Notes: generated by a model from the letters alone, not told the origin. A DNA stretch of 64,000 nucleotides from an uncultured Alphaproteobacteria bacterium (GCA_946625925.1 CAMOTP010000001.1:2770-66769), one strand, 5' to 3'; shown: positions 6,954 through 55,476, counted from the first letter of the stretch. Translations and numbers: made by a program.

Positions 6954-8102
6954 ATGAAATTATCTAGGCGTGATGTTTTAAAGATATCAGGTGTTGGATT
7001 TGTGGCGATGTCTATGTTGCCACGCGTGGCTTTCGCGTCACGAAATTCTGTTTTGTCGTTGCGTACAGGTGTTCAACCAAATGGAAAAACGCGTTTGGTT
7101 ATTGAAACATCTGGACGACCATCATATGATATTTCGTATCCACAAAATCAATTAGTTATTTCTTTGGCTAATACATCTGTTGGTGGTGTCAGTCCAAAAT
7201 TATCTGGGGATACGTTGATAAAAAATTTGACCCAGGTGCAAAATGGGGACAAGTTAAATATTGTTGCTGATTTGCGTCGTAGTATTGCACCAATTGATAA
7301 ATCCCAGGTTATGATTTTGTCGCCCAATGGTGATAATGAATATCGTTTGGTTTTTGATTTCGTTGCGGGTGCATCAAATACTGTATCAAATGGAACAACT
7401 GCGTCGGTGGCAAATCAGCCAGCAAAAAAATATGTTATTGTGATTGATGCAGGACATGGTGGCAAGGACCCTGGATGTATTGGTAAGGGTGGAACACGCG
7501 AAAAAGTGGTTGTGTTATCTGTTGCCAAGAAATTAAAAAAGGAATTGGATGCGATTGGTTTTAAAACGTATTTGACACGCAGTGGCGATACGTTTTTAAA
7601 GTTGGCAGAAAGGGCGGAAATTGCAGAAAAACGTCATGCAGATTTATTCTTGTCTTTGCATGCTAATGCAAACCCCAGTCGTTCTACGAAAGGCTATTCT
7701 GTGTATACTTTGTCAGAAAAAGCCTCTGACGAAGAAGCACAAAAATTGGCGGAAACAGAAAATGCGGTTGATAAAATCGGTGTTTCTGGTTTTTCTGAAT
7801 TTTCTAAAGAAATTCGTGTTGCATTATCTGCTTTGCAACAACGTGCTGTGGCCGAGTTGTCAGAAGAGTATGCGGCTGATTGTGCACGGGCAATGGATAA
7901 TGCATCAATAGATAGGTTGCCGGGGCCCAGTATTCGTCATGCACCATTTGCGGTGTTGCGTTCTACGGTACCAGGTGCCTTGATAGAGTTGGGACATTTG
8001 TCTAATGCAGCAGAAGAAAAGTTGCTGAAATCTGATACGCATCAGAATAAATTAGTTAGGGCTATTGTAAAATCTGTAAAAAATTACAATTTTGATGTTT
8101 AG
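6954..8102 (+). CDS. amiC: N-acetylmuramoyl-L-alanine amidase with Tat signal and AMIN domain (AmiC-like)
   Basis: Tat motif MKLSRRDVLKISG; C-terminal Amidase_3 motifs (VIVIDAGHGGKDPG, LFLSLHANA). Confidence 0.8.
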   Translation: MKLSRRDVLKISGVGFVAMSMLPRVAFASRNSVLSLRTGVQPNGKTRLVIETSGRPSYDISYPQNQLVISLANTSVGGVSPKLSGDTLIKNLTQVQNGDKLNIVADLRRSIAPIDKSQVMILSPNGDNEYRLVFDFVAGASNTVSNGTTASVANQPAKKYVIVIDAGHGGKDPGCIGKGGTREKVVVLSVAKKLKKELDAIGFKTYLTRSGDTFLKLAERAEIAEKRHADLFLSLHANANPSRSTKGYSVYTLSEKASDEEAQKLAETENAVDKIGVSGFSEFSKEIRVALSALQQRAVAELSEEYAADCARAMDNASIDRLPGPSIRHAPFAVLRSTVPGALIELGHLSNAAEEKLLKSDTHQNKLVRAIVKSVKNYNFDV

Positions 8103-8144
8103 TTGTTGAAAAATAAAAGAAAGTATATATAATTCCGCCTATAC

Positions 8145-8235
8145 GGAGATGTGGCAGAGCTGGTTGAATGCGCGCGACTCGAAATCGCGTATACGGGCGA
8201 CCGTATCGGGGGTTCGAACCCCTCCATCTCCGCCA
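8145..8235 (+). tRNA. tRNA-Ser (anticodon CGA)
   Basis: Acceptor GGAGATG/CATCTCC-G-CCA, anticodon loop CTCGAAA, long variable arm, T-loop GGGGGTTCGAACCCCTC. Confidence 0.85.
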
Positions 8236-8352
8236 GAGTTAAAATTATAAAAATGCACGCACAGTCGTGTTTTTTTATTGGTTTTTGGCTTGCTTTGGTG
8301 GGTAAAAAAATTTAAGATGTGTCTTGGTAAGTATCAAGGTTAGGGGAATATT

Positions 8353-11300
8353 ATGGCTAATTTAATTGTTGATGGTAATTGGGCTGCGGCAGATGTCGCG
8401 TATCGTTGTGTGGATTTTGCTGCAATTTATCCTATTACACCCAGTAGCACAATGGGCGAATTGGCGGATGCTTGGTCTTTTCAGCATAAAAAGAATATTT
8501 GGGGTGCGATTCCACAAATTATAGAAATGGAATCCGAAGGCGGTGCCGCTGGGGCAATGCATGGTGCATTGCAGATGGGAACATTGGCAACAACATTTAC
8601 CGCTTCCCAGGGGTTATTATTGATGATTCCAAACATGTATAAAATTGCAGGTGAACAAACGCCCTTTGTTATGCATGTTGCAGCACGTGCGTTGGCAACA
8701 CATGCGTTGTCTATATTTGGTGATCACAGTGATGTTATGTCTGTGCGTTCAACAGGTTTCGCAATGCTGTCCAGTCATAATGTTCAACAAGCACATGATT
8801 TGGCTGCGGTTGCGCATGCCGCGACATTGCGTGCACGTGTCCCATTTTTGCATTTTTTTGATGGGTTCCGTACCAGTCACGAAGAATCCAGATTATCAAG
8901 AATTGAAGATGATGTGTTGCGTAAGTTGATTCCTGATAATTTGGTGCTGGAAAATCGTGCGCGTGGTATGTCTCCTGAACATCCTACTATTCGTGGAACT
9001 GCGCAAAATCCCGATGTGTATTTCCAAGGACGTGAAGCAGTGAATCCTTTGTATCAAAATTTACCTGAAATTGTACAAAAGTGTATGGACGAATTGGCAG
9101 ATGCCACAGGTCGTTCGTATCATTTGGTTGATTATGTAGGTGATAAAAATGCAAAATTTGTTGTTGTTGCTATGGGCAGTGCATGTGAAACAATTGAAGA
9201 AACTTTGCCGTATTTACCAAAAAAATGTGGCTTGTTAAAAATTCATTTATTCCGTCCGTTCCCAACAGATGCGTTTTTATCAGTGTTGCCAAAAACGGTT
9301 AAACAAATTGCTGTTTTGGACAGAACAAAAGAACCGGGGGCAATCGGTGAACCGTTGTATCAAGATGTGGCCAGTATCGTGGACAAGGGTGTTTCTGTGT
9401 TTGGTGGACGTTATGGTTTGGGCAGTAAAGAATTTGCACCACGTGATGTCAAGGCTATTTATGAAAATATGATTATGGGAACATTGCATCATAATTTTAC
9501 TGTTGGTATTGAAGATGATTTGACGGGATTATCATTAAAAACAGATGCGATGTTTGCTATTGAAAATAAAGATGTTAAAACAGCATTGTTGTATGGAATC
9601 GGATCGGATGGAACAGTTGGTGCCGTTAAAAATATAGTAAAAATTGTGGGTGAAAATTCAGATTTGTATCCACAATCATATGCCGTTTATGATTCTAAGA
9701 AATCTGGTGGGTTGACGGCTTCACATATTCGTTTTTCAAATGCACCAATTAAAAGTCAATATTTGGTTGAAACGGCTGATTTTATTGGTGTGTCTAATTT
9801 TATGATTGCACAGCGGTTTGATGTTTTTCGTGCTTTGCGTGCTGGTGGAATTGTGATGATAAATACATCCAAAACCCCAGATGTTGCATTTGCAAATTTA
9901 CCACGTGAATCCCAAGAACAGTTGATGCGTTTGCGTGCACGTGTGTATTTCTTGGATGCAAATGCGGCAGCAGCAGAATTGGGGTTGGGAAATCGTATAA
10001 ACACATTCATTATGATTAATTTCTTTAATTTAATGAAAATTGTTGATCCTAAAATTGCGGCTGATGCAGCAAAAGATGCTATTGAAAAAACATATAAAAA
10101 GAAAGGTATGGATGTTGTTCAGGCTAATTGGGCAGCTGTGGATATGGCGTCTAAATATTTAACAGAATATAAATTGCCTTCCTCGGTTTCAAATTTTGCA
10201 CCTGACTTTATTCCTGCTATGACGGCTGATGCACCTGCCGAGATTGCAGGAACATTGGGCGAAATGGCATCTGGACGTGGTGATGATATTCCTGTGTCGC
10301 GTTTTCGTACAGGGGGATTGTTTGCCGCAGGACAGTATCCGGTTGGAACGTCTAAATATGAAAAACGTGGTATTTCGGAACGTGTTGCCAGTTGCGATTT
10401 ATCATTATGCGCACAATGTGGTAAATGTTCTATGTTGTGTCCACATGCGGCTATTCGTATCAAGGTTATGACAGAGAAAGAGGCCGAGGCAGCACGTGCA
10501 GATGGTGTTATTGTGGTACCTATGAAAACACCTGAATTGGGTGCCAATATGTATTATACATTAAATATTTCACCAGCAGATTGTACAGGGTGTTCTGTGT
10601 GTGTGAAAAATTGTCCTGTTCATGCGTTATCTATGGTTAATGCGGCCGATGATGTGGATGCACAAAAACGTTTTGATGCTGCACAGAAAATACCGGATAT
10701 TGCACGTGAAAAATTGAATTTGAATATACCAAAACATATTGAATTGTTACCGCATTATTTTGAATTTCCTGGTGCATGTGCGGGTTGCGGTGAAACACCA
10801 TATATAAAATTGTTGGCACATTTATTCGGGGATAGAATGATTGTTGCTAATGCGACGGGTTGTTCATCGATTTATGGTGCTAATTTACCGACAACGCCTT
10901 GGACAACAGATGCAGATGGTCGTGGACCAGCGTGGTCGAATTCTTTGTTCGAAGATAATGCAGAATATGGATTGGGAATGCGAATTGCTTTGAATCAAAG
11001 ACGCGATAATTTGTATAGTTTGTTGCGCGAGTTAGAAATTCCTGATGTTGATGAAATATTTGCAGAACAAGATATAACTAAACAACGGGAAAATGAAAAG
11101 AATTTACGCGAATATTTGGCAAAGAATAATAGTGATAGGGCACGATTAGCGGAAAGTTTGCTGGATGCTGTTGTTGATAAATCTTTGTGGATTGTTGGTG
11201 GTGATGGTTGGGCATATGATATCGGTTATGGTGGTTTGGATCATATTTTACATAGTGGTGAAAATGTAAATATATTGATTTTAGATACCGAAGGTTATTC

Positions 11301-13799: not shown

Positions 13800-13824
13800 A
13801 ACCGGCATATATGCCGGTTTTTTA
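13800..13824. terminator. bidirectional rho-independent terminator
   Basis: Hairpin ACCGGCATATATGCCGGT flanked by A-run and T-run, between convergent genes. Confidence 0.7.
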
Positions 13825-14475
13825 TCTTTGTGGTGTGGCGACAAAACAACGTAGCCAATGGTTAAATTTTGCATCAAATCCATTTTGATTAAATGCTTTA
13901 ATCCACCAATCATTTGGTTTAACTGTTTTTAATTCTTGGCAAGTTCCTAATTCTTGTCCCATTTTTTTAGCCGCATCATAATCTTCGATTGTATTATGAA
14001 TTGCGCAGACCATATTCGCGTTTTGAAATTTTGATAGCACCGCTGGTAAGGTCGCCTCGTCAAAATATGTAAGTATGCCGTTACAATAAACCAAGTCTGC
14101 CTTAATAGGTTTGCAATCTAAAATAGATTTTATTTGAATATACCCGTTTTGACGCAATTTTAACAATTCACTTTTTGCAACAACCTTGCGTGATTCGCCT
14201 TGTTGAACCCAAAAAGGCCAACCAGAAAACATTGGGCTATAAAAAGTCTTGGCGGTAAAATAATCACGAATATCAACCCCACGTGCATTCATGCCAGCAT
14301 CCATCGCTAATTTTATAACCACGCCAGTCGCAGCCCCACAATCAAAGAAGGTTTTTGGCTTTTTATCGTAATGCTGTTTGTAAACAGATGCCAGCATTTT
14401 TGGTGGCACAGAGCACATTACACCTTCTGGGTATGAATATTGCAAATATGGGTATTTTTTATCGTAATAATGCAT
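13822..14475 (-). CDS. putative class I SAM-dependent methyltransferase
   Basis: Motif I-like FFDCGAATGVV; 217 aa; otherwise unrecognised. Confidence 0.45.
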   Translation of the reverse strand: MHYYDKKYPYLQYSYPEGVMCSVPPKMLASVYKQHYDKKPKTFFDCGAATGVVIKLAMDAGMNARGVDIRDYFTAKTFYSPMFSGWPFWVQQGESRKVVAKSELLKLRQNGYIQIKSILDCKPIKADLVYCNGILTYFDEATLPAVLSKFQNANMVCAIHNTIEDYDAAKKMGQELGTCQELKTVKPNDWWIKAFNQNGFDAKFNHWLRCFVATPQR

Positions 14476-14655: not shown

Positions 14656-16362
14656 TTGTTTAATTCTAGTAATATGAAAGATTTATCCAAAGGTTTATTT
14701 AATCCGGTCGCAAGCGAAGATTTCGTCGCTATGTTCGATCAAAATTATGGTACACAAGAAACTTTACAAGGTTTCGCAACCAAGGGCACTGTCAAAGATA
14801 TTCGTGGCGACTTTGTTTTGGTTGATGTGGGTTTGAAATCCGAAGGTCGTGTTCCTTTAAAAGAATTTGGCGCATCTGTTCCATCTGTTGGCGACATCAT
14901 TGACGTTTTTGTTGAACGTTATGAATCACGCGAAGGAACAGCTGTATTGTCTTATGCAAAAGCACGCGCTGAAAAAGCATGGAAAGATTTGGAAAAAACT
15001 GTTGCCGAAGGTGTTGATCCAGAAGGAACAATTATCGATGTTGTTCGTGGTGGTTATACAGTTGATATCAATGGTGTGTTTGCATTTATGCCATCCAGCC
15101 AAATCGATCACAAACCTGTGCGTGATGCAAAATCTATGATTGGTTTAAAAGACAAATTCCGCGTTTTGAAAATGGATGCTTTGCGTACAAACGCTATTGT
15201 ATCTCGTCGTGCAATCCAATCTGATACAATTGCTGCTGCACAAAAAGAAGCAATGAAAAACATTGCGTTGGGTGCAGTTTTAGAAGGTACAGTTAAAAAC
15301 ATTACTGATTACGGTGTGTTCGTTGATTTGGGCGGTATTGATGGTTTGTTGCACGTTACAGATTTGTCTTGGAAACGTGTTAATCATCCTCGTGAATTGG
15401 TCAAAGTTGGTGATAAAATCAAGGTTAAAGTTATCCAATTTGATCCAGAATCTCATCGTATTTCATTGGGTGCAAAACAATTGGAAGAAGATCCTTGGGA
15501 AACAGCATCCCGTGCATTCAATGTTGGTGATACAGTAACAGGTAAGGTTGCATCATTGACTGATTACGGTGCATTTATTGATTTGGGTAATAATATCGAA
15601 GGTTTGGTGCATATGTCTGAATTGTCTTGGACAAACAAGAATATTCACCCAAGCAAAGTATTGCAAGTTGGCCAAGAAATCAATGTTGTCGTTTTGGATA
15701 TTGATCAAGAAAAACGTCGTATTTCGTTGGGTTATAAACAATTGCAACCAAATCCATGGAAACAATTTGCCGAAACACACAATGTTGGCGATGTCGTCAC
15801 AGGTCCAATCAAGAATACAACTGAATTCGGTTTGTTCATTGCTTTGACACCTGAATTGGATGGTATGGTTCATATTTCTGATTTGTCTTGGAATAAATTA
15901 GACGAAGAAGAATTAAAGAAATTTGTTCGTGGCCAAGAAGTCACAGCAAAAATCTTGGACATCAATCCAGAAAAAGAACGCGTTACATTGGGTATTAAAC
16001 AATTGACAGAAAGTGCTGAAAATAATGCTATTACAATCAAGAAGGGCGCAGTGGTATCTGGTACAGTTTCAGAAATCACACCTGATGAATTGATTGTTGC
16101 ATTGGCTGGTGATGCCAAAGGTATTATCCGTCGTACAGATTTGTCACGCGAAAAGGCAGAACAAGACACAAGCAAATATAAAGTCGGTGATACAGTGGAA
16201 GCGTCTGTTGTTTCCGTTGAAGACAATACAGTTAAATTGTCTATCCGTCATTTGCAGGTGACATTGGAAAAGCAAGCGGTCAAAGAATTCTCGAACGAAG
16301 CTGATTCTGGTTCCGTTTTGGGCGATATCTTGGGCGCTGCTATTGAAAATAGCAAAAAATAA
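14656..16362 (+). CDS. rpsA: 30S ribosomal protein S1
   Basis: Six S1 repeats (GTVKNITDYGVFVDLG..., GKVASLTDYGAFIDLG...); start could be ATG at 14674. Confidence 0.9.
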   Translation: MFNSSNMKDLSKGLFNPVASEDFVAMFDQNYGTQETLQGFATKGTVKDIRGDFVLVDVGLKSEGRVPLKEFGASVPSVGDIIDVFVERYESREGTAVLSYAKARAEKAWKDLEKTVAEGVDPEGTIIDVVRGGYTVDINGVFAFMPSSQIDHKPVRDAKSMIGLKDKFRVLKMDALRTNAIVSRRAIQSDTIAAAQKEAMKNIALGAVLEGTVKNITDYGVFVDLGGIDGLLHVTDLSWKRVNHPRELVKVGDKIKVKVIQFDPESHRISLGAKQLEEDPWETASRAFNVGDTVTGKVASLTDYGAFIDLGNNIEGLVHMSELSWTNKNIHPSKVLQVGQEINVVVLDIDQEKRRISLGYKQLQPNPWKQFAETHNVGDVVTGPIKNTTEFGLFIALTPELDGMVHISDLSWNKLDEEELKKFVRGQEVTAKILDINPEKERVTLGIKQLTESAENNAITIKKGAVVSGTVSEITPDELIVALAGDAKGIIRRTDLSREKAEQDTSKYKVGDTVEASVVSVEDNTVKLSIRHLQVTLEKQAVKEFSNEADSGSVLGDILGAAIENSKK

Positions 16363-16383
16363 TTTTGCAAATTTCAACATTAA

Positions 16384-16409
16384 CCCCGACAATTTGTCGG
16401 GGTTTTTTT
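16384..16409 (+). terminator. rho-independent terminator (copy 1 of CCCGACA..TGTCGGG hairpin)
   Basis: CCCCGACAATTTGTCGGGG followed by T7. Confidence 0.7.
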
Positions 16410-16468
16410 ATAAAGTAATATATAATATATATATTGACAAACAATTTTTTTAGTATAAAATATTTTGC

Positions 16469-17329
16469 ATGGAAACAAAAACAAATATTTTAACCCCGGA
16501 ACAATCATTTAGGCAACTTCGCCAAAATGGTTCTTTTGTTATACAAATGGCGCCAAATAACTGGCTGGTGACGGATTTTGCACCAGAATCTTGGGTATAC
16601 AATGTTTACAAACGTACATACAGTTATAAAATATTCAGAAATATGATAAATACTGATGAAAGTATTCAAGAATTTTGTATTATGGGTGATAATAGTATTC
16701 AAGAATTAAATAATTTTTTTCAAAATGTAAAACCAACTATATTTAATTTTGTAGGACGTCCTGGGGCAGGTAAAGGGACACATGGTGGACATTTTGCTGA
16801 AATTTATAAATTGCCTGTTGTAAAAACAGGGGAACTTATTCGTGCATCATATAAAGAATCAAATGCTACAATTACTGAATTAGCAAATAAATTTATTGAT
16901 GATGGTATTAATACTAATTCGGGCAAAAGTATTTGTTTAGATGGATATCCTCGTAATTTTATACAAAAAGACCATTTGTTATCTTATTTACCAAATTATA
17001 ATATATTTACGGTATTTTTGAACACGAACGAAGAGGAATGTTTAAAACGCATATCAAACAGACATGATAGCCATACAAGCGATCAAGACCAAGAAGCAAC
17101 CGAAAGACGTATGGAAAAATATGGTCAATATACGCGAAATGCTATTAAATCTATAAAAGAAGCGGCTTATAGTATTCGTGATATATATTATGCTGAAATT
17201 TCTATTGTACCTGGTGCCGAAAAAGATGTTAATTTTGGTCTGATGATGACTGGTTTAACCAAAGCTTTTAAAAATAAAATCAGTTGGATTGCACAACAAC
17301 AAATCCGAAATACTGATTTGCAAAAATAA
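16469..17329 (+). CDS. P-loop NMP-kinase (adenylate-kinase-like) paralog with ~90-aa N-terminal extension
   Basis: FVGRPGAGKGTHGG P-loop, ...TGELIRAS..., CLDGYPRN (DGFPR-like). Confidence 0.6.
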   Translation: METKTNILTPEQSFRQLRQNGSFVIQMAPNNWLVTDFAPESWVYNVYKRTYSYKIFRNMINTDESIQEFCIMGDNSIQELNNFFQNVKPTIFNFVGRPGAGKGTHGGHFAEIYKLPVVKTGELIRASYKESNATITELANKFIDDGINTNSGKSICLDGYPRNFIQKDHLLSYLPNYNIFTVFLNTNEEECLKRISNRHDSHTSDQDQEATERRMEKYGQYTRNAIKSIKEAAYSIRDIYYAEISIVPGAEKDVNFGLMMTGLTKAFKNKISWIAQQQIRNTDLQK

Positions 17330-17338
17330 AATCCATTA

Positions 17339-17362
17339 TCCCGACATTTTGTCGGGATTTTT
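17339..17362 (+). terminator. rho-independent terminator (copy 2 of CCCGACA..TGTCGGG hairpin)
   Basis: TCCCGACATTTTGTCGGGA followed by T5; near-identical to the hairpin at 16384. Confidence 0.7.
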
Positions 17363-17491
17363 ATATTTTTAACTTCTTTGACGTTTTTTTAAGGCTTGCA
17401 TCATTCTGCCGAATCTTACCATACCCACAACAAATACATATGGTAATTTAGTTCCTACTCTATATACCCTAAAAAATGTTAACTGTAAAAA

Positions 17492-18091
17492 TTATTTATA
17501 AATACATTTTTGTCTGTATCGAATAAAAGCCCCAGGATTTATTTTGGCAGCCTTTTTATTGGCCACAAATTCTTTAAACGATACAGGCATTACAAAAGGT
17601 GCTTTTTCATTGTACACAGAATCTAAAAACGCATCAAACTTTTCATCATATCTGATCATAGCATTCTCTAATTTATAGCATTTATCAGATAATATTTTTA
17701 TACGTTGTCCCATTCCATTTGTATCTATATCCGCCACATAATTAACAACAGAATCAATCTTGGTTTTATAATATTTAATAGAATCATAGTAACCGGCACT
17801 TTCCGTCATCAACTTTGCTTCTTTTGCAGAAAATCTTTCTATTACTGAATCAACAAATTTATCCCTGTGCTGAGTAAATTCTATATCTTGTGCTCTGTTA
17901 TCATTGCAAACAGAATCAAAATAAATTTTATATTGAGCTAAATCTTTCTTATGTTCTGCATAAGCCTTCGCATTAGCCTTTTTTAATTTTGCAAAATACA
18001 ATTCATCCTTTATCCATGTAACAGGAATCATTAACAATAAAGCCAATACTATAAACAATGCCAATTTTGCCTGAGATTTTTCGTCCATCAT
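17492..18091 (-). CDS. hypothetical membrane-anchored/secreted protein
   Basis: Internal start MMDEKSQAKLALFIVLALLLMIPVTW (one N-terminal TM or signal); no recognised domain. Confidence 0.4.
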   Translation of the reverse strand: MMDEKSQAKLALFIVLALLLMIPVTWIKDELYFAKLKKANAKAYAEHKKDLAQYKIYFDSVCNDNRAQDIEFTQHRDKFVDSVIERFSAKEAKLMTESAGYYDSIKYYKTKIDSVVNYVADIDTNGMGQRIKILSDKCYKLENAMIRYDEKFDAFLDSVYNEKAPFVMPVSFKEFVANKKAAKINPGAFIRYRQKCIYK

Positions 18092-18183
18092 ATAATCCTT
18101 TATATACACCAAATAATATACCCTAAAAACAAAAATGTCAACTATCAAAATAATTTTTATATATTTGATATTTTTTGACCGCA

Positions 18184-18192
18184 TGTTATAAT
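18184..18192 (+). promoter_or_regulatory. extended -10 element (TGtTATAAT) upstream of adk
   Basis: TGTTATAAT about 25 nt upstream of ATG 18217. Confidence 0.35.
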
Positions 18193-18216
18193 GTCCCAGC
18201 AAAACATGGAGAAAAG

Positions 18217-18795
18217 ATGAAAAACAAACTGATTTTAATGATGGGTGGTCAAGGATCCGGCAAAGGAACTTTGTCTAAGGCATTTTTAGCCGAACATGAC
18301 AATCAATATAATTATATTGAAACTGGTGCAATGTTGCGTGCTCTGCCTGAAAAACATCCGTTAAAAGCAATTATTGCACGTGGTGAATTTGTGCCGGATA
18401 CAGAGGTTTTTACATTATTAAAATCAAAAATAGATTCTGCTGGGGGGGATATTTTGTTGGATGGGTTTCCGCGTAAAGTGTCCCAGGCGGAATGGTTGGT
18501 TTCAACTTTTTCTGACAAATTTGATATAGTTGCGGTATATTTAAATTTGCCTGAATCTTTGATGTTGAAGCGTATTGAAAATCGTATTCGTGAGGGCGGT
18601 GGTCGTGCCGATGATGCGGATAGTGCGGCTGTGCGTCGTCGTTTGGATAATTTTCAGCATGAAACTATGCCAGCAATCAAATGGCTGAAAGGTAATGAAA
18701 AAGTGGTGTTCGTTGAGGTTGCTGTTGCAGATGCACCAGTGGAAGTGAATTATACAGCTTTAGTAGATGCGTTGAAGTCGAATAAAATTATATAA
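18217..18795 (+). CDS. adk: adenylate kinase, short type (no LID insertion)
   Basis: ILMMGGQGSGKGT P-loop, TGAMLRA, LLDGFPR, R..GR.DD; RBS GGAG; 192 aa. Confidence 0.8.
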   Translation: MKNKLILMMGGQGSGKGTLSKAFLAEHDNQYNYIETGAMLRALPEKHPLKAIIARGEFVPDTEVFTLLKSKIDSAGGDILLDGFPRKVSQAEWLVSTFSDKFDIVAVYLNLPESLMLKRIENRIREGGGRADDADSAAVRRRLDNFQHETMPAIKWLKGNEKVVFVEVAVADAPVEVNYTALVDALKSNKII

Positions 18796-18817
18796 ATTGA
18801 ATAAATGGAGAAACAGT

Positions 18818-19537
18818 ATGACAACAAACAGACAAAAACAAATTGAAAAGAATGAAGCGATAATCGCAAAATTAAAAAGACAAACAAAACCAACTATGGT
18901 AATTGTGTTGGGGGTCCAAGGTTGTGGTAAAGGAACACAATCAGAAATGTATTTAAGTGAACATTCTACACGCGTTAACTATATTGGTAAAAAAACCGTC
19001 AATTACTTAAACGATATTGAACGTCCAATTGAATTTAAATATATTGGTACGGGTGATTTGTTACGTTCACAACCAGAAAATTCACCAGAACGTAAAGCAA
19101 TCGACAAAGGTCATTTTGTCCCTGATTCCGTTATATTTAATTTATTGAATCAAACAATTACCACAGATGTAAATATATGGGGTGACGGTCTGGGGCGCAG
19201 TTTACAACAAGCAAAACAATTAGTTAAATCATATGGTCGCAGATTCAATATTGTTGCTGTCTATTTCAATATGCCTGAATCCCTGGTCGCAGAACGTATT
19301 GCACAACGTAATGCCATGGGTGCTGGACGTGCAGATGATGCAGATATGGCCGCTGTAAAAAAACGTGTAAGTACATTTAACCATGTCACAATGCCTGCAA
19401 TTAATTGGATGCGTGTTAACAAAAATGTTGTATTTACCGAAGTGCCAATTACAAACGATACACCAGATGTAAATTATCAAAAATTAAAAACTATTTTGAA
19501 TACAGCACTGGCACAAAATAATATAATACTGAAATAA
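18818..19537 (+). CDS. adenylate-kinase-like NMP kinase paralog
   Basis: VLGVQGCGKGT, TGDLLRS, GDGLGR replacing DGFPR; C-terminal block GRADDADMAAVKKRVSTFNHVTMPAINW parallels adk GRADDADSAAVRRRLDNFQHETMPAIKW. Confidence 0.65.
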   Translation: MTTNRQKQIEKNEAIIAKLKRQTKPTMVIVLGVQGCGKGTQSEMYLSEHSTRVNYIGKKTVNYLNDIERPIEFKYIGTGDLLRSQPENSPERKAIDKGHFVPDSVIFNLLNQTITTDVNIWGDGLGRSLQQAKQLVKSYGRRFNIVAVYFNMPESLVAERIAQRNAMGAGRADDADMAAVKKRVSTFNHVTMPAINWMRVNKNVVFTEVPITNDTPDVNYQKLKTILNTALAQNNIILK

Positions 19538-19566
19538 AAAAAACTCCCCAAATGGGGAGTTTTTTA
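19538..19566. terminator. bidirectional terminator between adk paralog and groEL
   Basis: A7-CTCCCCAAATGGGGAG-T6. Confidence 0.75.
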
Positions 19567-19578
19567 TTTGATACTTTA

Positions 19579-21195
19579 TTACATCATTCCTGGCATGCCG
19601 GCTGGCATTTTTGCATCTGATTTTTCTTCGGGAATTTCAGACATTACAGCTCCCGTTGTCAGCATTACACCAGCGGTGCTGGATGCCGCCATAATAGCAG
19701 TTTTGACAACTTTGGCAGGGTCAATAATACCAGCCTTCATCATATCGACATATTCTGCTGTCTGGGCATTGTATCCAAAATTGTAATCTTTGGCTTCGGA
19801 TACTTTGCCAACAACAATTTCACCAGATACACCTGCGTTTTCGGCAATTTGTGCACATGGTGCAACAATGGCACGACGAACAATATCAATACCAACATTT
19901 TGATCTGTATTATCGCCAGTCAATTTTTCTAATGCTGCAACAGCACGAACCAATGCAACACCGCCACCTGCAACAATACCATCAGCGACAGCCGCGCGTG
20001 TTGCAGCCAATGCATCATCAACACGATCTTTCTTTTCTTTTACCTCTACCTCGGTCATACCTCCGACCTTGATAACGGCAACACCGCCAACCAATTTGGC
20101 AAGTCTTTCAGACAATTTTTCACGTTCGTATTCGCTGGTTGTTGTGGACAGTAATTGACGGATTTCGTCGGCACGTGCATTTATTTTGTTTTTGTCGCCA
20201 CCGCCATGTGCCAACAATGTTGTATCTTTGCTGACAACAACTTTTTTAGCGGTTCCCAATACGTCCATAGATATATTTTCGAACGTCATACCCATATCAT
20301 CGGAAATGACTGTTGCACCAGTTACAATAGCGATATCTTTTAACATTTCTTTGCGTCTGTCACCAAAACCTGGGGCTTTGACAGCACAAACTTTTAATCC
20401 GCCACGTAAACGGTTTAAAACCAATGTTGCTAATGCTTCGGATTCAACATCTTCGGCAATAATTAACAATGGACGACCGCTTTGGGCGATTGGTTCCAAA
20501 ATTGGTAATAAGGATTGCAAGCCAGAAATCTTTTTTTCAGAAACCAAAATTTGTGCGTTGTCTAATTCTGCCAACATTTTTTCGCTGTTTGTGACAAAGT
20601 AAGGTGACATAAATCCTTGGTCGAATTGCATACCTTCGACAACATCAATTTCTGTATCCAAACCTTTGGCTTCTTCGACGGTGATAACACCTTCGCGGCC
20701 AACACGTGCCATTGCATCGGCTATTTTTGCACCGATATCACTATCGCCATTAGCAGAAATTGTTGCAACCTGGGCGATTTCGCTGCTGTCTTTGACTGGG
20801 CGTGCATGTTTTTCAACATCTGCAACGACCGCAGCAGTGGCAATATCAATTCCGCGTTTGATATCCATAGGATTCATTCCTGCGGCAATTACACGACGAC
20901 CTTCGTGAATTATTTTTTGTGCCAATACTGTCGCTGTTGTTGTGCCATCACCTGCATCATCACCGGCTTTCTTTGCAACTTCTTGGACCATACGGGCACC
21001 AATGTTTTCAGTTGGATCTTTTAAGGAAACTGCCTTGGCAACGGTAACACCGTCTTTGGTTGCAGTTGGGGCACCATATGGTTTATCAATTACAACGGTG
21101 CGTCCTTTGGGACCCATAGTGATTTTTACGGCATTTGCCAGTTTGTCAACACCGGCTGCCATTTTATCTGTGTCAAAAACAATATCTTTTGCCAT
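19579..21195 (-). CDS. groL: chaperonin GroEL (Cpn60)
   Basis: 538 aa; signatures AAVEEGIVAGGG (here [13 protein letters not shown]) and C-terminal GGM-like PAGMPGMM. Confidence 0.95.
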
Positions 21196-34084: not shown

Positions 34085-34597
34085 ATGTTCGGTTTTGGTA
34101 AAAAGAAAACAGAAACCAAAAAAATTGAAAACGCATCAGAATCAATGGATGATGTAAAAATGCCTTCGGGTATGAAAGAAACCGCTGAACGTATGATGTC
34201 CGGGCAATTTGATATGAATGATATGTTGGCACAATTAAAACAAATTAAAAAAATGAGTAATTTTAGTGGGTTGTTAAAAATGGTGCCAGGAATGAGTGGT
34301 GCTGTTAATGCCATGAAAGAAAAAATCAAAGACGGCAGTGTTGATGCCCAAATTAAAATATTGGAAGCAATGACTGCCGAAGAACGTGCTGATCCAGAAA
34401 AGATTTTCGCAAATGCAAAAACACGTATTTCTGAAAAGGCAGGTTGTACTGTTCGTGATGTTGAACATATTATAAAACAGTACTTAAATATGAAACGACA
34501 AATGGCAATGATTCAACGCATGGGGGGAATGGAGGCGGTGATGCAACGTATGCAACAAGGCGGCGGTGTGCCAGGAACCCCCGGAGGAATCAAATAA
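34085..34597 (+). CDS. stand-alone SRP54/Ffh M-domain protein (no NG GTPase domain)
   Basis: FDMNDMLAQLKQIKKM..., ILEAMTAEERADPEKIF, TRISEKAGCTVRDVEHIIKQY align to the E. coli Ffh M domain; own AAGGAG RBS; upstream gene is uvrA. Confidence 0.7.
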   Translation: MFGFGKKKTETKKIENASESMDDVKMPSGMKETAERMMSGQFDMNDMLAQLKQIKKMSNFSGLLKMVPGMSGAVNAMKEKIKDGSVDAQIKILEAMTAEERADPEKIFANAKTRISEKAGCTVRDVEHIIKQYLNMKRQMAMIQRMGGMEAVMQRMQQGGGVPGTPGGIK

Positions 34598-36975: not shown

Positions 36976-37725
36976 ATGGAATATAAAAATGTTGTTTTGA
37001 AATTTGGTGGGTCGGTTATACCTGATGAAAATGGAATATATCAAGTTGCCAATATTATACAGAATTTGTCGTTAAAGTATAATGTAATGGCTGTGGTTGT
37101 GTCTGCTATGGGTAAGACGACAAATAATTTAGATGCATTGGCTCATCGGGTTGAAAAAAATCCAAATGTTCGTGAATTAGATGCTTTGTTGGCAACTGGT
37201 GAAATGCAGTCTGTGGCTTTGTTATCGATGCGATTAAATGGTATAGGGGTTCCTGCGGTAGGATACAATGCATATCAATGTAAAATTGAAACAGATGATA
37301 ATTTTGGAAATGCTAAAATTCGGCATATGGGTATGGAACACATAAATCATTTGTATGGGATGCCAATTATTGCAGGTTTTCAGGGTATAACAGAACGTGG
37401 TGAAATCACAACATTGGGGCGTGAGGGTTCGGATATTTCAGCGGTTATGATTGCAGTGGCATGTGGTGCAGATTTTTGTTGGTTTTTCAAGGACGGTGGT
37501 GGAATTTATGATAAAAACCCAAATAAAGAACCAGATGCTCGTTTGTTTAGGAAAATATCATATACAAAAATGTTAGATTTATTGAATCAGGGGCGCGGTC
37601 AAGTTTTACATAAAAGTAGTGTCAGTTTGGCACAAGAATACAAAATGCCTTTGTTTGTATCAGGTATGAAAAATCCAGATGTTGGGACAATGATTGTTCC
37701 ACGTGTTCACAGTAAAACATATTAA
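36976..37725 (+). CDS. aspartokinase-like amino-acid kinase, catalytic domain only (no ACT domains)
   Basis: VLKFGGS, VVVSAMGKTTNNL, ITTLGREGSDISA motifs; only 249 aa. Confidence 0.6.
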   Translation: MEYKNVVLKFGGSVIPDENGIYQVANIIQNLSLKYNVMAVVVSAMGKTTNNLDALAHRVEKNPNVRELDALLATGEMQSVALLSMRLNGIGVPAVGYNAYQCKIETDDNFGNAKIRHMGMEHINHLYGMPIIAGFQGITERGEITTLGREGSDISAVMIAVACGADFCWFFKDGGGIYDKNPNKEPDARLFRKISYTKMLDLLNQGRGQVLHKSSVSLAQEYKMPLFVSGMKNPDVGTMIVPRVHSKTY

Positions 37726-43791: not shown

Positions 43792-43802
43792 GAATTTTAG
43801 AA

Positions 43803-43845
43803 AACACCCGTTTGGGTGTTTTTTTGATTCTGTCGACAAAGGGGT
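43803..43845 (+). repeat. terminator-like repeat copy 1 (ACACCC-N4-GGGTGT + T7 ... CAAAGGGG)
   Basis: ACACCCGTTTGGGTGTTTTTTT; shares stem and CAAAGGGG tail with copies at 43931 and 49123. Confidence 0.65.
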
Positions 43846-43930
43846 GAGAACCCGCAGGGTTGCGAGGCGAGGTTATGAAATAACCGAAGTACTTTGCGAA
43901 GCCCAAAGTTTTAACACCCGAAAGGGTGTT

Positions 43931-48349: not shown

Positions 48350-49120
48350 ATGAGAACGTTTAATAACAAAGGCGTTTATGAATCACCATTTAAATATGAT
48401 CGTGATTTCAAGGTCAGAGTACGTTGTGATGGACTCGATTTACCAGAATATTGTGGCAATTGGAATCAGGCGGGTCATATTATTCCATATCCAGAAACTT
48501 TACAAACATATATTTTCCCACTTATAAGATCTGCGGGGCTGGGTGAAGATGGATTGCAATTCGAACGCGAATATATTGTAAGCAGTAAAAGACGCGGATT
48601 ATTATATCGTGGTGTTAGTAATTTGTTGAGGGCTTTGGATGATATGCCATCGCGTTCGTGGTCTGGAAATGGTTTAAGTTTTGGTGCACATTATCGTATC
48701 AAAAATGCCAAAGACTATGAAATTTTTCATGCAAAGATGCTTTATGATGATGGACCATATGGTGAAATAGAATTCGAAGTTGAATATTATGATTCAACTG
48801 CTTTGAAATATCGTTATGGTTGGCGCTGTTGGGATGATGAGAAATTTGTCTATGACCTGGATTATGCTGCGATGGATGCAACCACAGATATATTTGGTGT
48901 TTTAGAAAATGCAAAAACACGTTATCGTCCATCAAGTGTATTTTTTGACGTCGCTTCTTATATGCAAACTCCAAGATTTATGCGTCCACGCGGCAGTTTT
49001 TTAATTCCGTTATTGCCTGGCTCTAATGGGTTAGCGTCGCGCAGGGTGCGTCGTGTATTACACAAAATGAATTATTTGTGTGCGAAATACGAGTGGAATA
49101 AATATAATCAAGGTAGATAA
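48350..49120 (+). CDS. hypothetical protein
   Basis: 257 aa from internal ATG (MRTFNNKG) with AAAAGG RBS; no recognised domain. Confidence 0.45.
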   Translation: MRTFNNKGVYESPFKYDRDFKVRVRCDGLDLPEYCGNWNQAGHIIPYPETLQTYIFPLIRSAGLGEDGLQFEREYIVSSKRRGLLYRGVSNLLRALDDMPSRSWSGNGLSFGAHYRIKNAKDYEIFHAKMLYDDGPYGEIEFEVEYYDSTALKYRYGWRCWDDEKFVYDLDYAAMDATTDIFGVLENAKTRYRPSSVFFDVASYMQTPRFMRPRGSFLIPLLPGSNGLASRRVRRVLHKMNYLCAKYEWNKYNQGR

Positions 49121-49122
49121 AA

Positions 49123-49158
49123 AAACACCCATTTGGGTGTTTTTTTTGTTGGCAAAAG
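49123..49158 (+). repeat. terminator-like repeat copy 3 (right boundary of accessory segment)
   Basis: ACACCCATTTGGGTGTTTTTTTTGTTGGCAAAAG; matches copy 2 in stem, T-run and TTGGCAAA(G/A)G tail. Confidence 0.65.
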
Positions 49159-49202
49159 TCGCTATTTTGTTTATACTTTTTACGAAAGGCAAGGGGTGTA
49201 TC

Positions 49203-50312
49203 ATGACGCAAATATTATCCGAAGTGTATCTGGATTATTCTGATATTTTAATTAGACCAAAAATGGGTATAAACCTGAATTCGCGCAAAGATGTTAATTT
49301 ACAAAGATTATTCAAGTTTAAACATGGACAAACACGTACAGGTTTGGGCGTATTTAATGCTAATATGGCGACAGTTGGTAATTTTATTGTTGCAAAAAAA
49401 TTGTTGCAAAAAGGTATGTTTGCCACAATACACAAACATTATACTGTCGATGAAATAGGAAAGTTTTTCTTGGATGCTAAACAAGAAAATGTTCCATTGG
49501 ATAATCTGTTCGTGACGATTGGATTGAAAGATATAGACGGACAAATTCAAAAATTAAAAGAATTGGAATCTGGATATGGTTGGAAATCACCACGCAATAT
49601 CTGTATTGATGCCCCAAATTTTTATATTCAGAAGGCTTTGGATGTTTTGGCACGTGTCAGACAAGAATTCCCTGATGCGGTAATAATGGCTGGAAATATT
49701 GCCAGTTCGGATATTTGCCTTAAATTATTAGATTATGCCGATATTATAAAATGCGGTATTGGCAGTGGTTCTGCGTGTTTAACAAGAAAACAAACAGGTT
49801 GTGGAACACCAATGGTGTCGTTGATTTTAGAATGCGCGGATATTGCACATTCTGTGGGGGGGCATATTTGTGCGGATGGTGGTATTGTTGATGTTGGTGA
49901 TATTTGCAAGGCATTGTGTTTGAATTCTGATTTCGTTATGGCGGGCGGTATGTTTGCCGGTACAGACGAGGCCGAAGGACAAATTATCGAGAAAAATTAC
50001 GAAACATCTGAGATGTTTGATGGAAAACATGTTATTCAAACAAAGTGTTTCAAGGTGTATTATGGTATGTCTTCGGAATATGCAAATAATAAGTTTGCTG
50101 GTGGTATGGGGAATTATAAAACATCCGAAGGACGTGAATTGTTAATTCCATATACTGGTTCGATTGATAAAATTTTGCAAGATATCACTGGTGGAATTGC
50201 GTCATGTTGTACTTATATTGGTGCCGCTTCGGTTAAGCATATGTCAAAGTGTGCAACAATAATTCAGGTACACAATCAGTTAAATAAAGTGTTTGAAAAA
50301 TACTCGGTTTAA
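49203..50312 (+). CDS. guaC: GMP reductase (IMPDH/GMPR family)
   Basis: LDYSDILIRPK, CIDAPN, GIGSGSACLTR, YYGMSSE; collinear with E. coli GuaC. Confidence 0.85.
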   Translation: MTQILSEVYLDYSDILIRPKMGINLNSRKDVNLQRLFKFKHGQTRTGLGVFNANMATVGNFIVAKKLLQKGMFATIHKHYTVDEIGKFFLDAKQENVPLDNLFVTIGLKDIDGQIQKLKELESGYGWKSPRNICIDAPNFYIQKALDVLARVRQEFPDAVIMAGNIASSDICLKLLDYADIIKCGIGSGSACLTRKQTGCGTPMVSLILECADIAHSVGGHICADGGIVDVGDICKALCLNSDFVMAGGMFAGTDEAEGQIIEKNYETSEMFDGKHVIQTKCFKVYYGMSSEYANNKFAGGMGNYKTSEGRELLIPYTGSIDKILQDITGGIASCCTYIGAASVKHMSKCATIIQVHNQLNKVFEKYSV

Positions 50313-54945: not shown

Positions 54946-55476
54946 ATGCAAAACGATTTTAACTTTTGTCCGCATTGTGGCGGAAGAAATGTTCGTAATA
55001 TAGATATGCGTCATTGGCAATGTGATGATTGTGGTTTTGTTTTGTATCACAATGTTGCCGCATCTGTTGCTGTTATTATTGCTGATGAATCTGGTGCAAT
55101 TCTTTTTGAGGTGCGTGCCAAACAGCCTAAACAAGGGATGTTGTGTTTGCCGGGTGGTTTCGTTGAACCAGGTGAGAGTTTAGAGCAGGCGTGTGTTCGT
55201 GAATGTTATGAGGAAATAGGTGTAAAACCTGTGGGGTTGCAATATATGGCATCGTTTCCCAATACTTATGAATACAAAGGGGTTTTGTATAAGACTTGTG
55301 ATGCTTTTTTTGTGGCAAACATGCCAGATAATGCGGAATTTCATCTGCAACAGGGCGAGGTGTCGCAAATACAAAAATGCTGTATAAATAATTTGCAAGA
55401 TTTAGAAAAATTGCCGTTGGCTTTTGATAGTGCGCGTTGTGCATTGAAATGTTTTGTTTCTGAATTTTATAAATAA
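54946..55476 (+). CDS. NUDIX hydrolase with N-terminal zinc ribbon (NudC-like)
   Basis: CPHCGG...CDDCGF zinc ribbon; Nudix box GGFVEPGESLEQACVRECYEEIG. Confidence 0.75.
   Translation: MQNDFNFCPHCGGRNVRNIDMRHWQCDDCGFVLYHNVAASVAVIIADESGAILFEVRAKQPKQGMLCLPGGFVEPGESLEQACVRECYEEIGVKPVGLQYMASFPNTYEYKGVLYKTCDAFFVANMPDNAEFHLQQGEVSQIQKCCINNLQDLEKLPLAFDSARCALKCFVSEFYK

Follow-up and report, generated by a model that had tools for sequence, protein, structure and literature searches.

Three adenylate-kinase-family paralogs between rpsA and groEL in an uncultured alphaproteobacterium of the order Rs-D84

We analysed a 64,000-nucleotide stretch of DNA (GCA_946625925.1, CAMOTP010000001.1:2770-66769; hereafter the window), part of an 82.9-kb metagenome scaffold, whose host is an uncultured alphaproteobacterium of the order Rs-D84 (Candidatus Enterousia). 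Between rpsA and groEL the window holds three plus-strand genes of the adenylate kinase (ADK) family, which we call K1 (16469-17329, 286 residues), K2 (18217-18795, 192 residues) and K3 (18818-19537, 239 residues). The explanation that we favour, with moderate confidence, is a lineage-specific expansion of one ADK-family nucleoside monophosphate (NMP) kinase that Rs-D84/Enterousia species keep downstream of rpsA. K2 would be the ancestral housekeeping enzyme, expressed from its own extended -10 promoter, and K3 would have arisen from it by tandem duplication in one subclade and be co-transcribed with it. K1 would form a separate, probably leaderless unit in which an orphan domain was added, the AMP clamp shortened and the lid Arg exchanged for His. 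A duplicated rpsA terminator would end the K1 transcript in this sublineage, and a hotspot between rpsA and groEL would shuffle kinase cassettes and accessory genes between Enterousia species.

All three kinases pass the gathering score of the Pfam family ADK PF00406 (26.8 bits), K1 with 52.4, K2 with 75.6 and K3 with 61.7 bits, in agreement with a preliminary description of this DNA that had placed three ADK-family paralogs at these positions. Their best NCBIfam matches are likewise all adenylate kinase models (K2, 91 bits; K3, 67; K1, 61; cut-off 187), and basal members of the K2 family score 94-116 bits against the same cut-off. None of K1, K2 and K3 reaches an NCBIfam cut-off for adk (TIGR01351, NF0013xx/NF0110xx), cmk or UMP/CMP kinase. 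The UMP-CMP kinase family model TIGR01359 gives 78.5, 64.0 and 51.7 bits across the three against a cut-off of 207.6; the cmk model TIGR00017 matches K2 only, with 18 bits against 135.55 (E 0.0018); and thymidylate kinase appears only in weak PHROG matches (E 2.5e-5). The NCBIfam scores thus rule out cmk, tmk and UMP/CMP kinase as identities of K1-K3, and the prospect that two of the genes might prove to be distinct known kinases by hidden Markov model (HMM) did not materialize. The identity between K2 and K3 is 42% (E 2e-56) and extends to the GRADDAD...TMPAI.W block; over its kinase domain K1 shares 29% of residues with K2 and 25% with K3.

Origins outside nucleotide metabolism were also considered. 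The PADLOC-DB defence models return nothing for K1 and only weak, generic matches of the P-loop protein VakA for K2 and K3 (21, 25 bits), and a defence-system identity was rejected on that ground. A phage origin was rejected as well, since PHROGs and a tblastn search of 50,697 phage records yield only generic ADK similarity (<=29%). A literature search turned up no study of adk paralogs in bacteria and none of the kinases of Enterousia.

The catalytic apparatus was read from an alignment of K1-K3 with three reference kinases, Adk of E. coli and the human proteins AK1 and CMPK1. The P-loops are GRPGAGKGT in K1, GGQGSGKGT in K2 and GVQGCGKGT in K3, each invariant within its ortholog set. In E. 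coli numbering, all three retain K13, R36, D84, R88, Q92, R119, R123, D159 and R167. The catalytic arginines R36, R88, R123, R156 and R167 number five in K2 and K3 and four in K1, in which the lid arginine R156 is replaced by an invariant His. The adenine-reading Gln, at position +4 after DGxxR, is also invariant (Q90 in K2, Q131 in K3, Q166 in K1), whereas CMPK1 and the UMP-CMP kinases have Asn at this position. K2 and K3 also retain the Thr of their xTGxxxR motif. Pairwise ratios of nonsynonymous to synonymous substitution (dN/dS), taken at dS values of ~0.8-1.1 that are near saturation, are 0.11-0.28 for K1, 0.11-0.17 for K2 and 0.14-0.23 for K3, with 0.03-0.04 for rpsA. All three kinases are under purifying selection and hence constrained. 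The G+C content of third codon positions (GC3) is lowest in K1 (0.18), followed by K3 (0.23) and K2 (0.31).

A scan of species-representative genomes gave 80 loci (individual related loci are labelled L plus a number), in 75 of which rpsA is followed by one K2-type kinase on the same strand, usually ~100 nt downstream; multi-kinase loci are rare, which answers the earlier question of copy number in relatives. Across these 75 related species rpsA is 87-98% identical, and without exception the kinase is downstream of it. The presence of a single K2-type kinase behind rpsA in 75 of the 80 species identifies K2 as the ancestral housekeeping gene of the lineage. Its family comprises at least 396 homolog clusters, and its catalytic residues are all invariant across orthologs. 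K2 is a short-lid ADK-family kinase, and the closest solved structures, by PDB sequence matches, are AK1-type kinases. It had been described as a canonical adk, a term that does not fit a protein scoring 91 bits against 187 and carrying Gln where the P-loop consensus has Pro. Nonetheless the adenylate kinase of the lineage (ATP + AMP = 2 ADP) is most likely K2, since the gene is universal and syntenic and retains its catalytic residues together with a Gln of the adenine type. The window, the rest of the source contig and 1.3 Mb of related loci (93 loci) contain no further adk, and neither cmk nor gmk occurs in those loci or in the rest of the contig.

K2 is preceded by a promoter, TTGATA-16-TATAAT with an extended -10 TG (18165-18192, plus strand), that matches 11 of 12 consensus positions and lies in a region homologous to the sequence upstream of K2 in L008 and L091. 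Throughout the order the rpsA terminator is, as a rule, followed at once by a TGnTATAAT box (most of the rpsA-K2 loci). A conserved hairpin in the 5' untranslated region of K2, suspected from four loci, fails across the 80, where only the terminator and the extended -10 are general. At K1 (window 16456-16471), and at the K2 genes of L054, L055, L057, L059, L076, L083, L084 and L087-L089, the -10 box ends ~6-8 nt before the ATG with no Shine-Dalgarno sequence, a layout that points to leaderless mRNAs immediately behind the ribosomal protein S1 gene.

In three loci (L002, L003 and L012) a K2-type kinase lies away from rpsA (gene at ~8001-8579 or 10001-10567). The neighbours of this relocated kinase are an RNase H gene, a large unannotated open reading frame (ORF) and a 217-residue minus-strand ORF that has no detectable similarity to the ORF of equal length upstream of rpsA in the window. 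The matching region of the window's own contig (L093) holds no kinase. A P-loop kinase beside prfA in L002 is shikimate kinase and was set aside.

K3 starts after a 22-nt spacer from K2, has its own GGAG ribosome-binding site and is predicted to be co-transcribed with K2. Three features set it apart: DGLGR replaces DGFPR, a 21-residue insert follows helix 1, and a basic extension of 22 residues precedes the domain. These novelties are invariant across the ortholog set (16 clusters), as are all five catalytic arginines, K38 and Q131. The best matches of K3 outside its own orthologs are the K2s of its own subclade, with 42-44% identity and ~170 bits. We therefore take K3, as had been proposed from its likeness to K2, to be a lineage-restricted tandem duplicate of K2 that would then have undergone accelerated evolution. 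It is most likely still an adenine-nucleotide phosphotransferase, in which the insertion, the basic extension and the DGLGR loop probably alter kinetics, partners or donor/deoxy preference. In the stretch at window 18956-19045 (residues 47-76) the insert starts with VNYIG, and FKYIG comes after it, which resembles a short internal duplication of the strand before the NMP-binding motif, with very few residues to compare.

K1 carries ~90 extra N-terminal residues, as first described. Its gene divides into an N-terminal domain (16469-16735, plus strand; ~89 residues arranged as a helix, five strands and a helix) and a kinase domain of divergent ADK fold (16736-17329, plus strand). Invariant in the kinase domain are the P-loop, R125, DGYPR162, Q166, R194, R198 and R214, together with His202, which takes the place of the lid Arg in all orthologs. 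About 11 residues (xxVPDxxxxLL) are missing from the NMP-binding segment, the part that closes over AMP. A profile alignment with the K2 family (hhalign) has a probability of 98.6%, and the C-terminal VN[FY] motif specific to that family is common to both. K1 scores up to 74 bits against the K2 family, 49 against E. coli Adk and ~50 against phage kinases. With a K1 model as query, Foldseek returns AK and UMP/CMP kinase structures at probability 1.0 and target-normalised TM scores of ~0.6-0.7; the best full-length AlphaFold2 model has a pLDDT of 79 and a pTM of 0.82. K1 thus appears to be a more diverged relative of the K2 family. It is the fastest-evolving gene at the locus and, with 12 homolog clusters, rarer than K2.

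The N-terminal domain of K1 is an orphan domain. Modelled in isolation by AlphaFold2 it reaches a pLDDT of 83 and all five models agree, yet Foldseek finds no fold match for it in the PDB (best E 0.31), Pfam gives none, and a profile search through 1.84 billion representative proteins recovers it in no protein other than K1. The single extra match (P0163) is spurious, a repeat protein. Derivation from a known fold or from an S1 domain was rejected on these Foldseek, Pfam and representative-protein searches. Fifteen residues of the domain are invariant among orthologs. From these features K1 probably binds ATP normally but uses an altered acceptor, works much more slowly or is regulated. More tentatively, and against the odds as we judge them, K1 may found a new ADK-derived subfamily with a non-canonical acceptor or the role of a regulated or ATP-sensing switch, and not that of an ordinary NMP kinase, K1 and K3 then being exchanged accessory cassettes that tune adenylate and energy handling.

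The preliminary description had K1 sitting between two near-identical terminator hairpins, as if inserted together with a copy of the rpsA terminator. The hairpins are real. The intrinsic terminator of rpsA, T1 (16382-16411, plus strand), consists of AACCCCGACAATTTGTCGGGGTT and a T run, with a hairpin at 16382-16404 of 10 pairs, 6 of them GC. A terminator scan places that of K1, T2, at 17338-17365 (plus strand; hairpin 17338-17358), with ATCCCGACATTTTGTCGGGAT and a T run. One compensatory base pair at the stem foot and one loop base distinguish the two. Within the 64 kb their core, CCCGACAnTTTGTCGGG, has no match beyond these two, with 0.03 occurrences expected by chance, and hence the hairpin is not a common terminator of the window. 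A CCCGAC...GTCGGG hairpin follows rpsA in L007, L008, L009, L010, L011, L084 and L087, and T2 is identical at 25 of 25 positions to the rpsA terminator of L007; T2 is therefore a duplicated rpsA terminator.

The suggested joint insertion of K1 and this terminator holds at most locally. T2 is absent after K1 in other relatives, unrelated hairpins taking its place in L007 and L009 and no strong hairpin being found in L010 and L011, whereas L091 has a shortened T2-like hairpin (ATCCCGA-TAAAAT-TCGGGAT). A T2-like hairpin after K1 is limited to this sublineage. Arrival of T2 with the minus-strand ORF between K1 and K2, hinted at by an rpsA-terminator-ORF order in L008, is weakened by L091, which has the T2-like hairpin without the ORF. 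A bidirectional terminator (19538-19565, terminator scans of both strands) serves K3 and the convergent groEL; bidirectional hairpins between K3 or K2 and groEL have the same stem in L007 and L091, a related stem in L004 and different stems in L008 and L009. Re-use of terminators is not unique to K1, because an AACACCC/GGGTGTT terminator-like stem recurs at three window sites (43801-43822, 43913-43930 and 49122-49143), and terminator stems seem to be re-used or copied more generally in this genome.

The promoter of K1, TTGACA-16-TAAAAT (16434-16461, plus strand), matches 11 of 12 consensus positions. Since it ends 7 nt before the ATG, the K1 transcript is probably leaderless. The arrangement TTGACAA-N17-TAnnAT, ~7 nt before the ATG, is kept at all six K1 loci (the window, L007, L009, L010, L011 and L091).

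The locus is bounded by two conserved anchors, rpsA on the left (14674-16362, plus strand; a 562-residue gene call with repeated S1 domains) and the convergent groEL on the right (19579-21195, minus strand; Cpn60), which is 88-95% identical in related loci. Between them the gene content varies. The order K1-K2-K3 is found in the window and in L007 and L009, independent assemblies from other samples whose kinases are 63-85% identical to those of the window at the protein level; K1-K2 is found in L010, L011 and L091, and K2-K3 with a minus-strand ORF in L008. K1 directly follows rpsA in the five other loci that have it. In L064, a distant Enterousia-like species, the rpsA-linked kinase has been duplicated in tandem independently (9260-9892 and 9992-10618), the extra copy being 40% identical to its neighbour and closest to L085 and L086; duplication of this kinase is thus recurrent. 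The array in the window is not strictly tandem as first described, although the three paralogs stand, because a minus-strand ORF (17492-18184; 230 residues, one N-terminal membrane helix) separates K1 from K2. This ORF has a GC content of 29% and no match in Pfam, PADLOC or PHROG. Homologs occupy the same rpsA-K2 gap in L008 (35%) and L086 (27%), and none is present at L007, L009 or L091.

The closest relative found is L091 (ENA scaffold TONG22-1_SAMN15871424 scaffold_42822, 1-1936), whose K1 is 80% identical to that of the window. The K2 of this locus is only 60% identical to that of the window and 89% to that of L004, and K3 is missing. Such a mosaic implies that kinase cassettes have been exchanged between lineages. 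In other relatives the interval between rpsA/K2 and groEL holds restriction-enzyme-like and DNA methyltransferase-like genes, surface-type proteins of 485-751 residues and homologs of the minus-strand ORF, with unrelated insertions in L010 (3753-5725), L011 (6312-7769), L017 (11410-13665), L008 (4856-5864), L086 (9274-9861) and L018 (9225-9914). The rpsA-groEL interval looks like a mosaic recombination or integration hotspot between two conserved anchors. DNA trees of rpsA and groEL are star-like and mutually discordant and were not used to order events.

Several points weigh against the expansion as set out here. K2 reaches only about half of every NCBIfam adk cut-off, and its NCBI label is merely 'nucleoside monophosphate kinase'. 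The usual location of adk in bacteria is the secY-adk ribosomal-protein operon, which was found neither in the 1.3 Mb of loci searched nor in the rest of the source contig; a canonical adk could still be encoded there, in which case K2 would be something else. In a neighbour-joining tree K1 and K3 have long branches and join the K2 family at its base, within it relative to other ADKs yet outside their own subclade, a placement in which long-branch artefacts are likely. The local-duplication origin of K1 and K3 is proposed because of best-hit ranking and adjacency. Finally, four of the five full-length models of K1 are poor.

The relatives of the window are metagenome-assembled genomes that carry the name Candidatus Enterousia or Alphaproteobacteria and come from the rumen and from the gut of horse, chicken and human. 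Rs-D84/Enterousia genomes are smaller than 1 Mb, lack the biosynthesis of nucleotides, amino acids and lipids, have no respiration and an incomplete glycolysis, and probably belong to organisms with a partner-dependent lifestyle (PMC12306168). The nucleotide-scavenging lifestyle suggested in the preliminary description fits this picture.

Such an organism must salvage all nucleotides, and K1 and/or K3 might have taken CMP, UMP, GMP or dNMP as acceptor and so replaced a cmk, gmk or tmk lost in genome reduction. In none of ~75 species does a cmk lie next to rpsA, neither cmk nor gmk appears in the 1.3 Mb of loci, K1 has a remodelled NMP-binding segment, and eukaryotic UMP/CMP kinases, which have the same fold, are among the best structural matches. 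We nevertheless consider this shift unlikely: all three kinases have Gln and not Asn, K2 and K3 keep the Thr of xTGxxxR, and the TIGR01359 scores of 52-79 bits are far from 207.6. Moreover, most Enterousia species have one kinase, and hence the paralogs do not cover a missing activity that is universally essential. The differing NMP specificities proposed earlier for the three genes are for the same reasons not favoured, though they may apply to K1. The retained Gln and most catalytic residues would suit a different explanation, in which three plain adenylate kinases buffer AMP/ADP/ATP in an energy-poor, partner-dependent cell; the very limited energy metabolism of the lineage and the independent duplication in L064 point the same way. 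This too is rather improbable, since copies that are 25-42% identical and carry a lineage-invariant insert, a new domain and an Arg-to-His exchange are unusual for dosage duplicates, and the separate promoter, separate terminator and GC3 of K1 (0.18 vs 0.31 in K2) suggest different expression.

K1 could also have left metabolism and be a P-loop protein with an accessory, regulatory or conflict-related role, such as phage defence or action on a macromolecular target, within a variable islet. Its patchy distribution, a gene tree in conflict with that of K2, the fastest evolution at the locus, and the restriction-modification genes and large surface proteins of the same interval in relatives are consistent with this, as are the orphan domain, the exchange of lid Arg for His and the truncated NMP site. 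However, PADLOC has no match for K1 and only a weak and generic one, VakA, for K2 and K3, phage relatives go no further than generic ADK similarity, and the invariance of DGYPR, Q166 and four of the five catalytic arginines is that of nucleotide kinases; we see little likelihood in it. That mis-assembly or a chimeric contig created the triplication is a thought that any metagenome scaffold invites, and one that we all but dismiss: the same K1-K2-K3 order recurs in the independent assemblies L007 and L009, and every copy is under purifying selection. Expansion of the single rpsA-linked kinase is the explanation that we retain.

The three genes resemble several known systems without coinciding with any of them. 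Short-lid AK1-type kinases and the short bacterial Adk of M. tuberculosis and Thermus have the fold and length of K2, share its P-loop, NMP-binding Arg, DGFPR, adenine Gln and short lid (R...R...GRxDD...R), and are the best PDB matches in sequence and structure. Unlike them, K2 attains about half of the curated thresholds, has the P-loop Gln for Pro and the family motifs YIETGA, QAxW, GGGRADDAD, PAIxW and VNY, and lies next to rpsA. The eukaryotic UMP/CMP kinases (TIGR01359; Dictyostelium UmpK, yeast Ura6, human CMPK1) also have the ADK fold and a short lid and are the top Foldseek matches of K1, but differ in their Asn from the Gln of K1-K3, whose HMM scores fall far below the cut-off. In the eukaryotic series AK1-AK9 one ancestral adenylate kinase has likewise given rise to paralogs that differ by extensions or insertions, and these paralogs differ in location or donor preference. 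The present case differs in that it concerns a bacterium with a genome below 1 Mb, that the copies are in tandem and recent (subclade-specific), and that the K1 domain is without a detectable relative. Linkage of cmk to rpsA is common in bacteria and likewise pairs a P-loop NMP kinase with rpsA, whereas the kinase described here belongs to the ADK family and lies downstream of rpsA, behind a terminator and with a promoter of its own.

Some further features of the window were recorded. Divergently upstream of rpsA, a place often occupied by cmk in other bacteria, lies a 217-residue ORF (13822-14475, minus strand) with no family match and a weak hint of an AdoMet methyltransferase; its position is kept in many relatives at 37-87% identity. 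The match of a 249-residue ORF at 36976-37725 to aspartate kinase (234 bits, cut-off 376) is confined to the catalytic domain; the ORF lacks ACT regulatory domains and is odd in a genome of a group reported to lack amino-acid biosynthesis; this AA_kinase gene had been considered as pyrH, an assignment that was rejected. Just after uvrA, a 170-residue ORF (34085-34597) corresponds to SRP54/Ffh in the signal-peptide-binding (M) domain alone; an NG GTPase domain is not found among the scanned ORFs, and the gene may be a split or truncated ffh. A GMP-reductase-like gene (49080-50312; 354 bits, cut-off 397) and a NUDIX hydrolase (54946-55476) fit an economy of purine salvage and interconversion. 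An Rfam scan of the window detects four tRNAs only.

To our knowledge, more than one adenylate kinase is very unusual in a bacterium, and genomes below 1 Mb seldom hold gene duplicates. Our finding is a moderate and testable one that overturns no established knowledge. For recombination among Enterousia species, the rpsA-groEL interval looks useful as a marker locus. K1, with its new N-terminal domain, is a modest but real lineage-specific innovation, and its function is the most interesting part of the finding: the protein is a natural experiment in which one ADK scaffold lacks the lid Arg and part of the AMP clamp and is at the same time fused to a new domain. The presence of two or three diverged yet constrained ADK-type genes indicates that adenylate and nucleotide handling is still a site of innovation in these gut symbionts.

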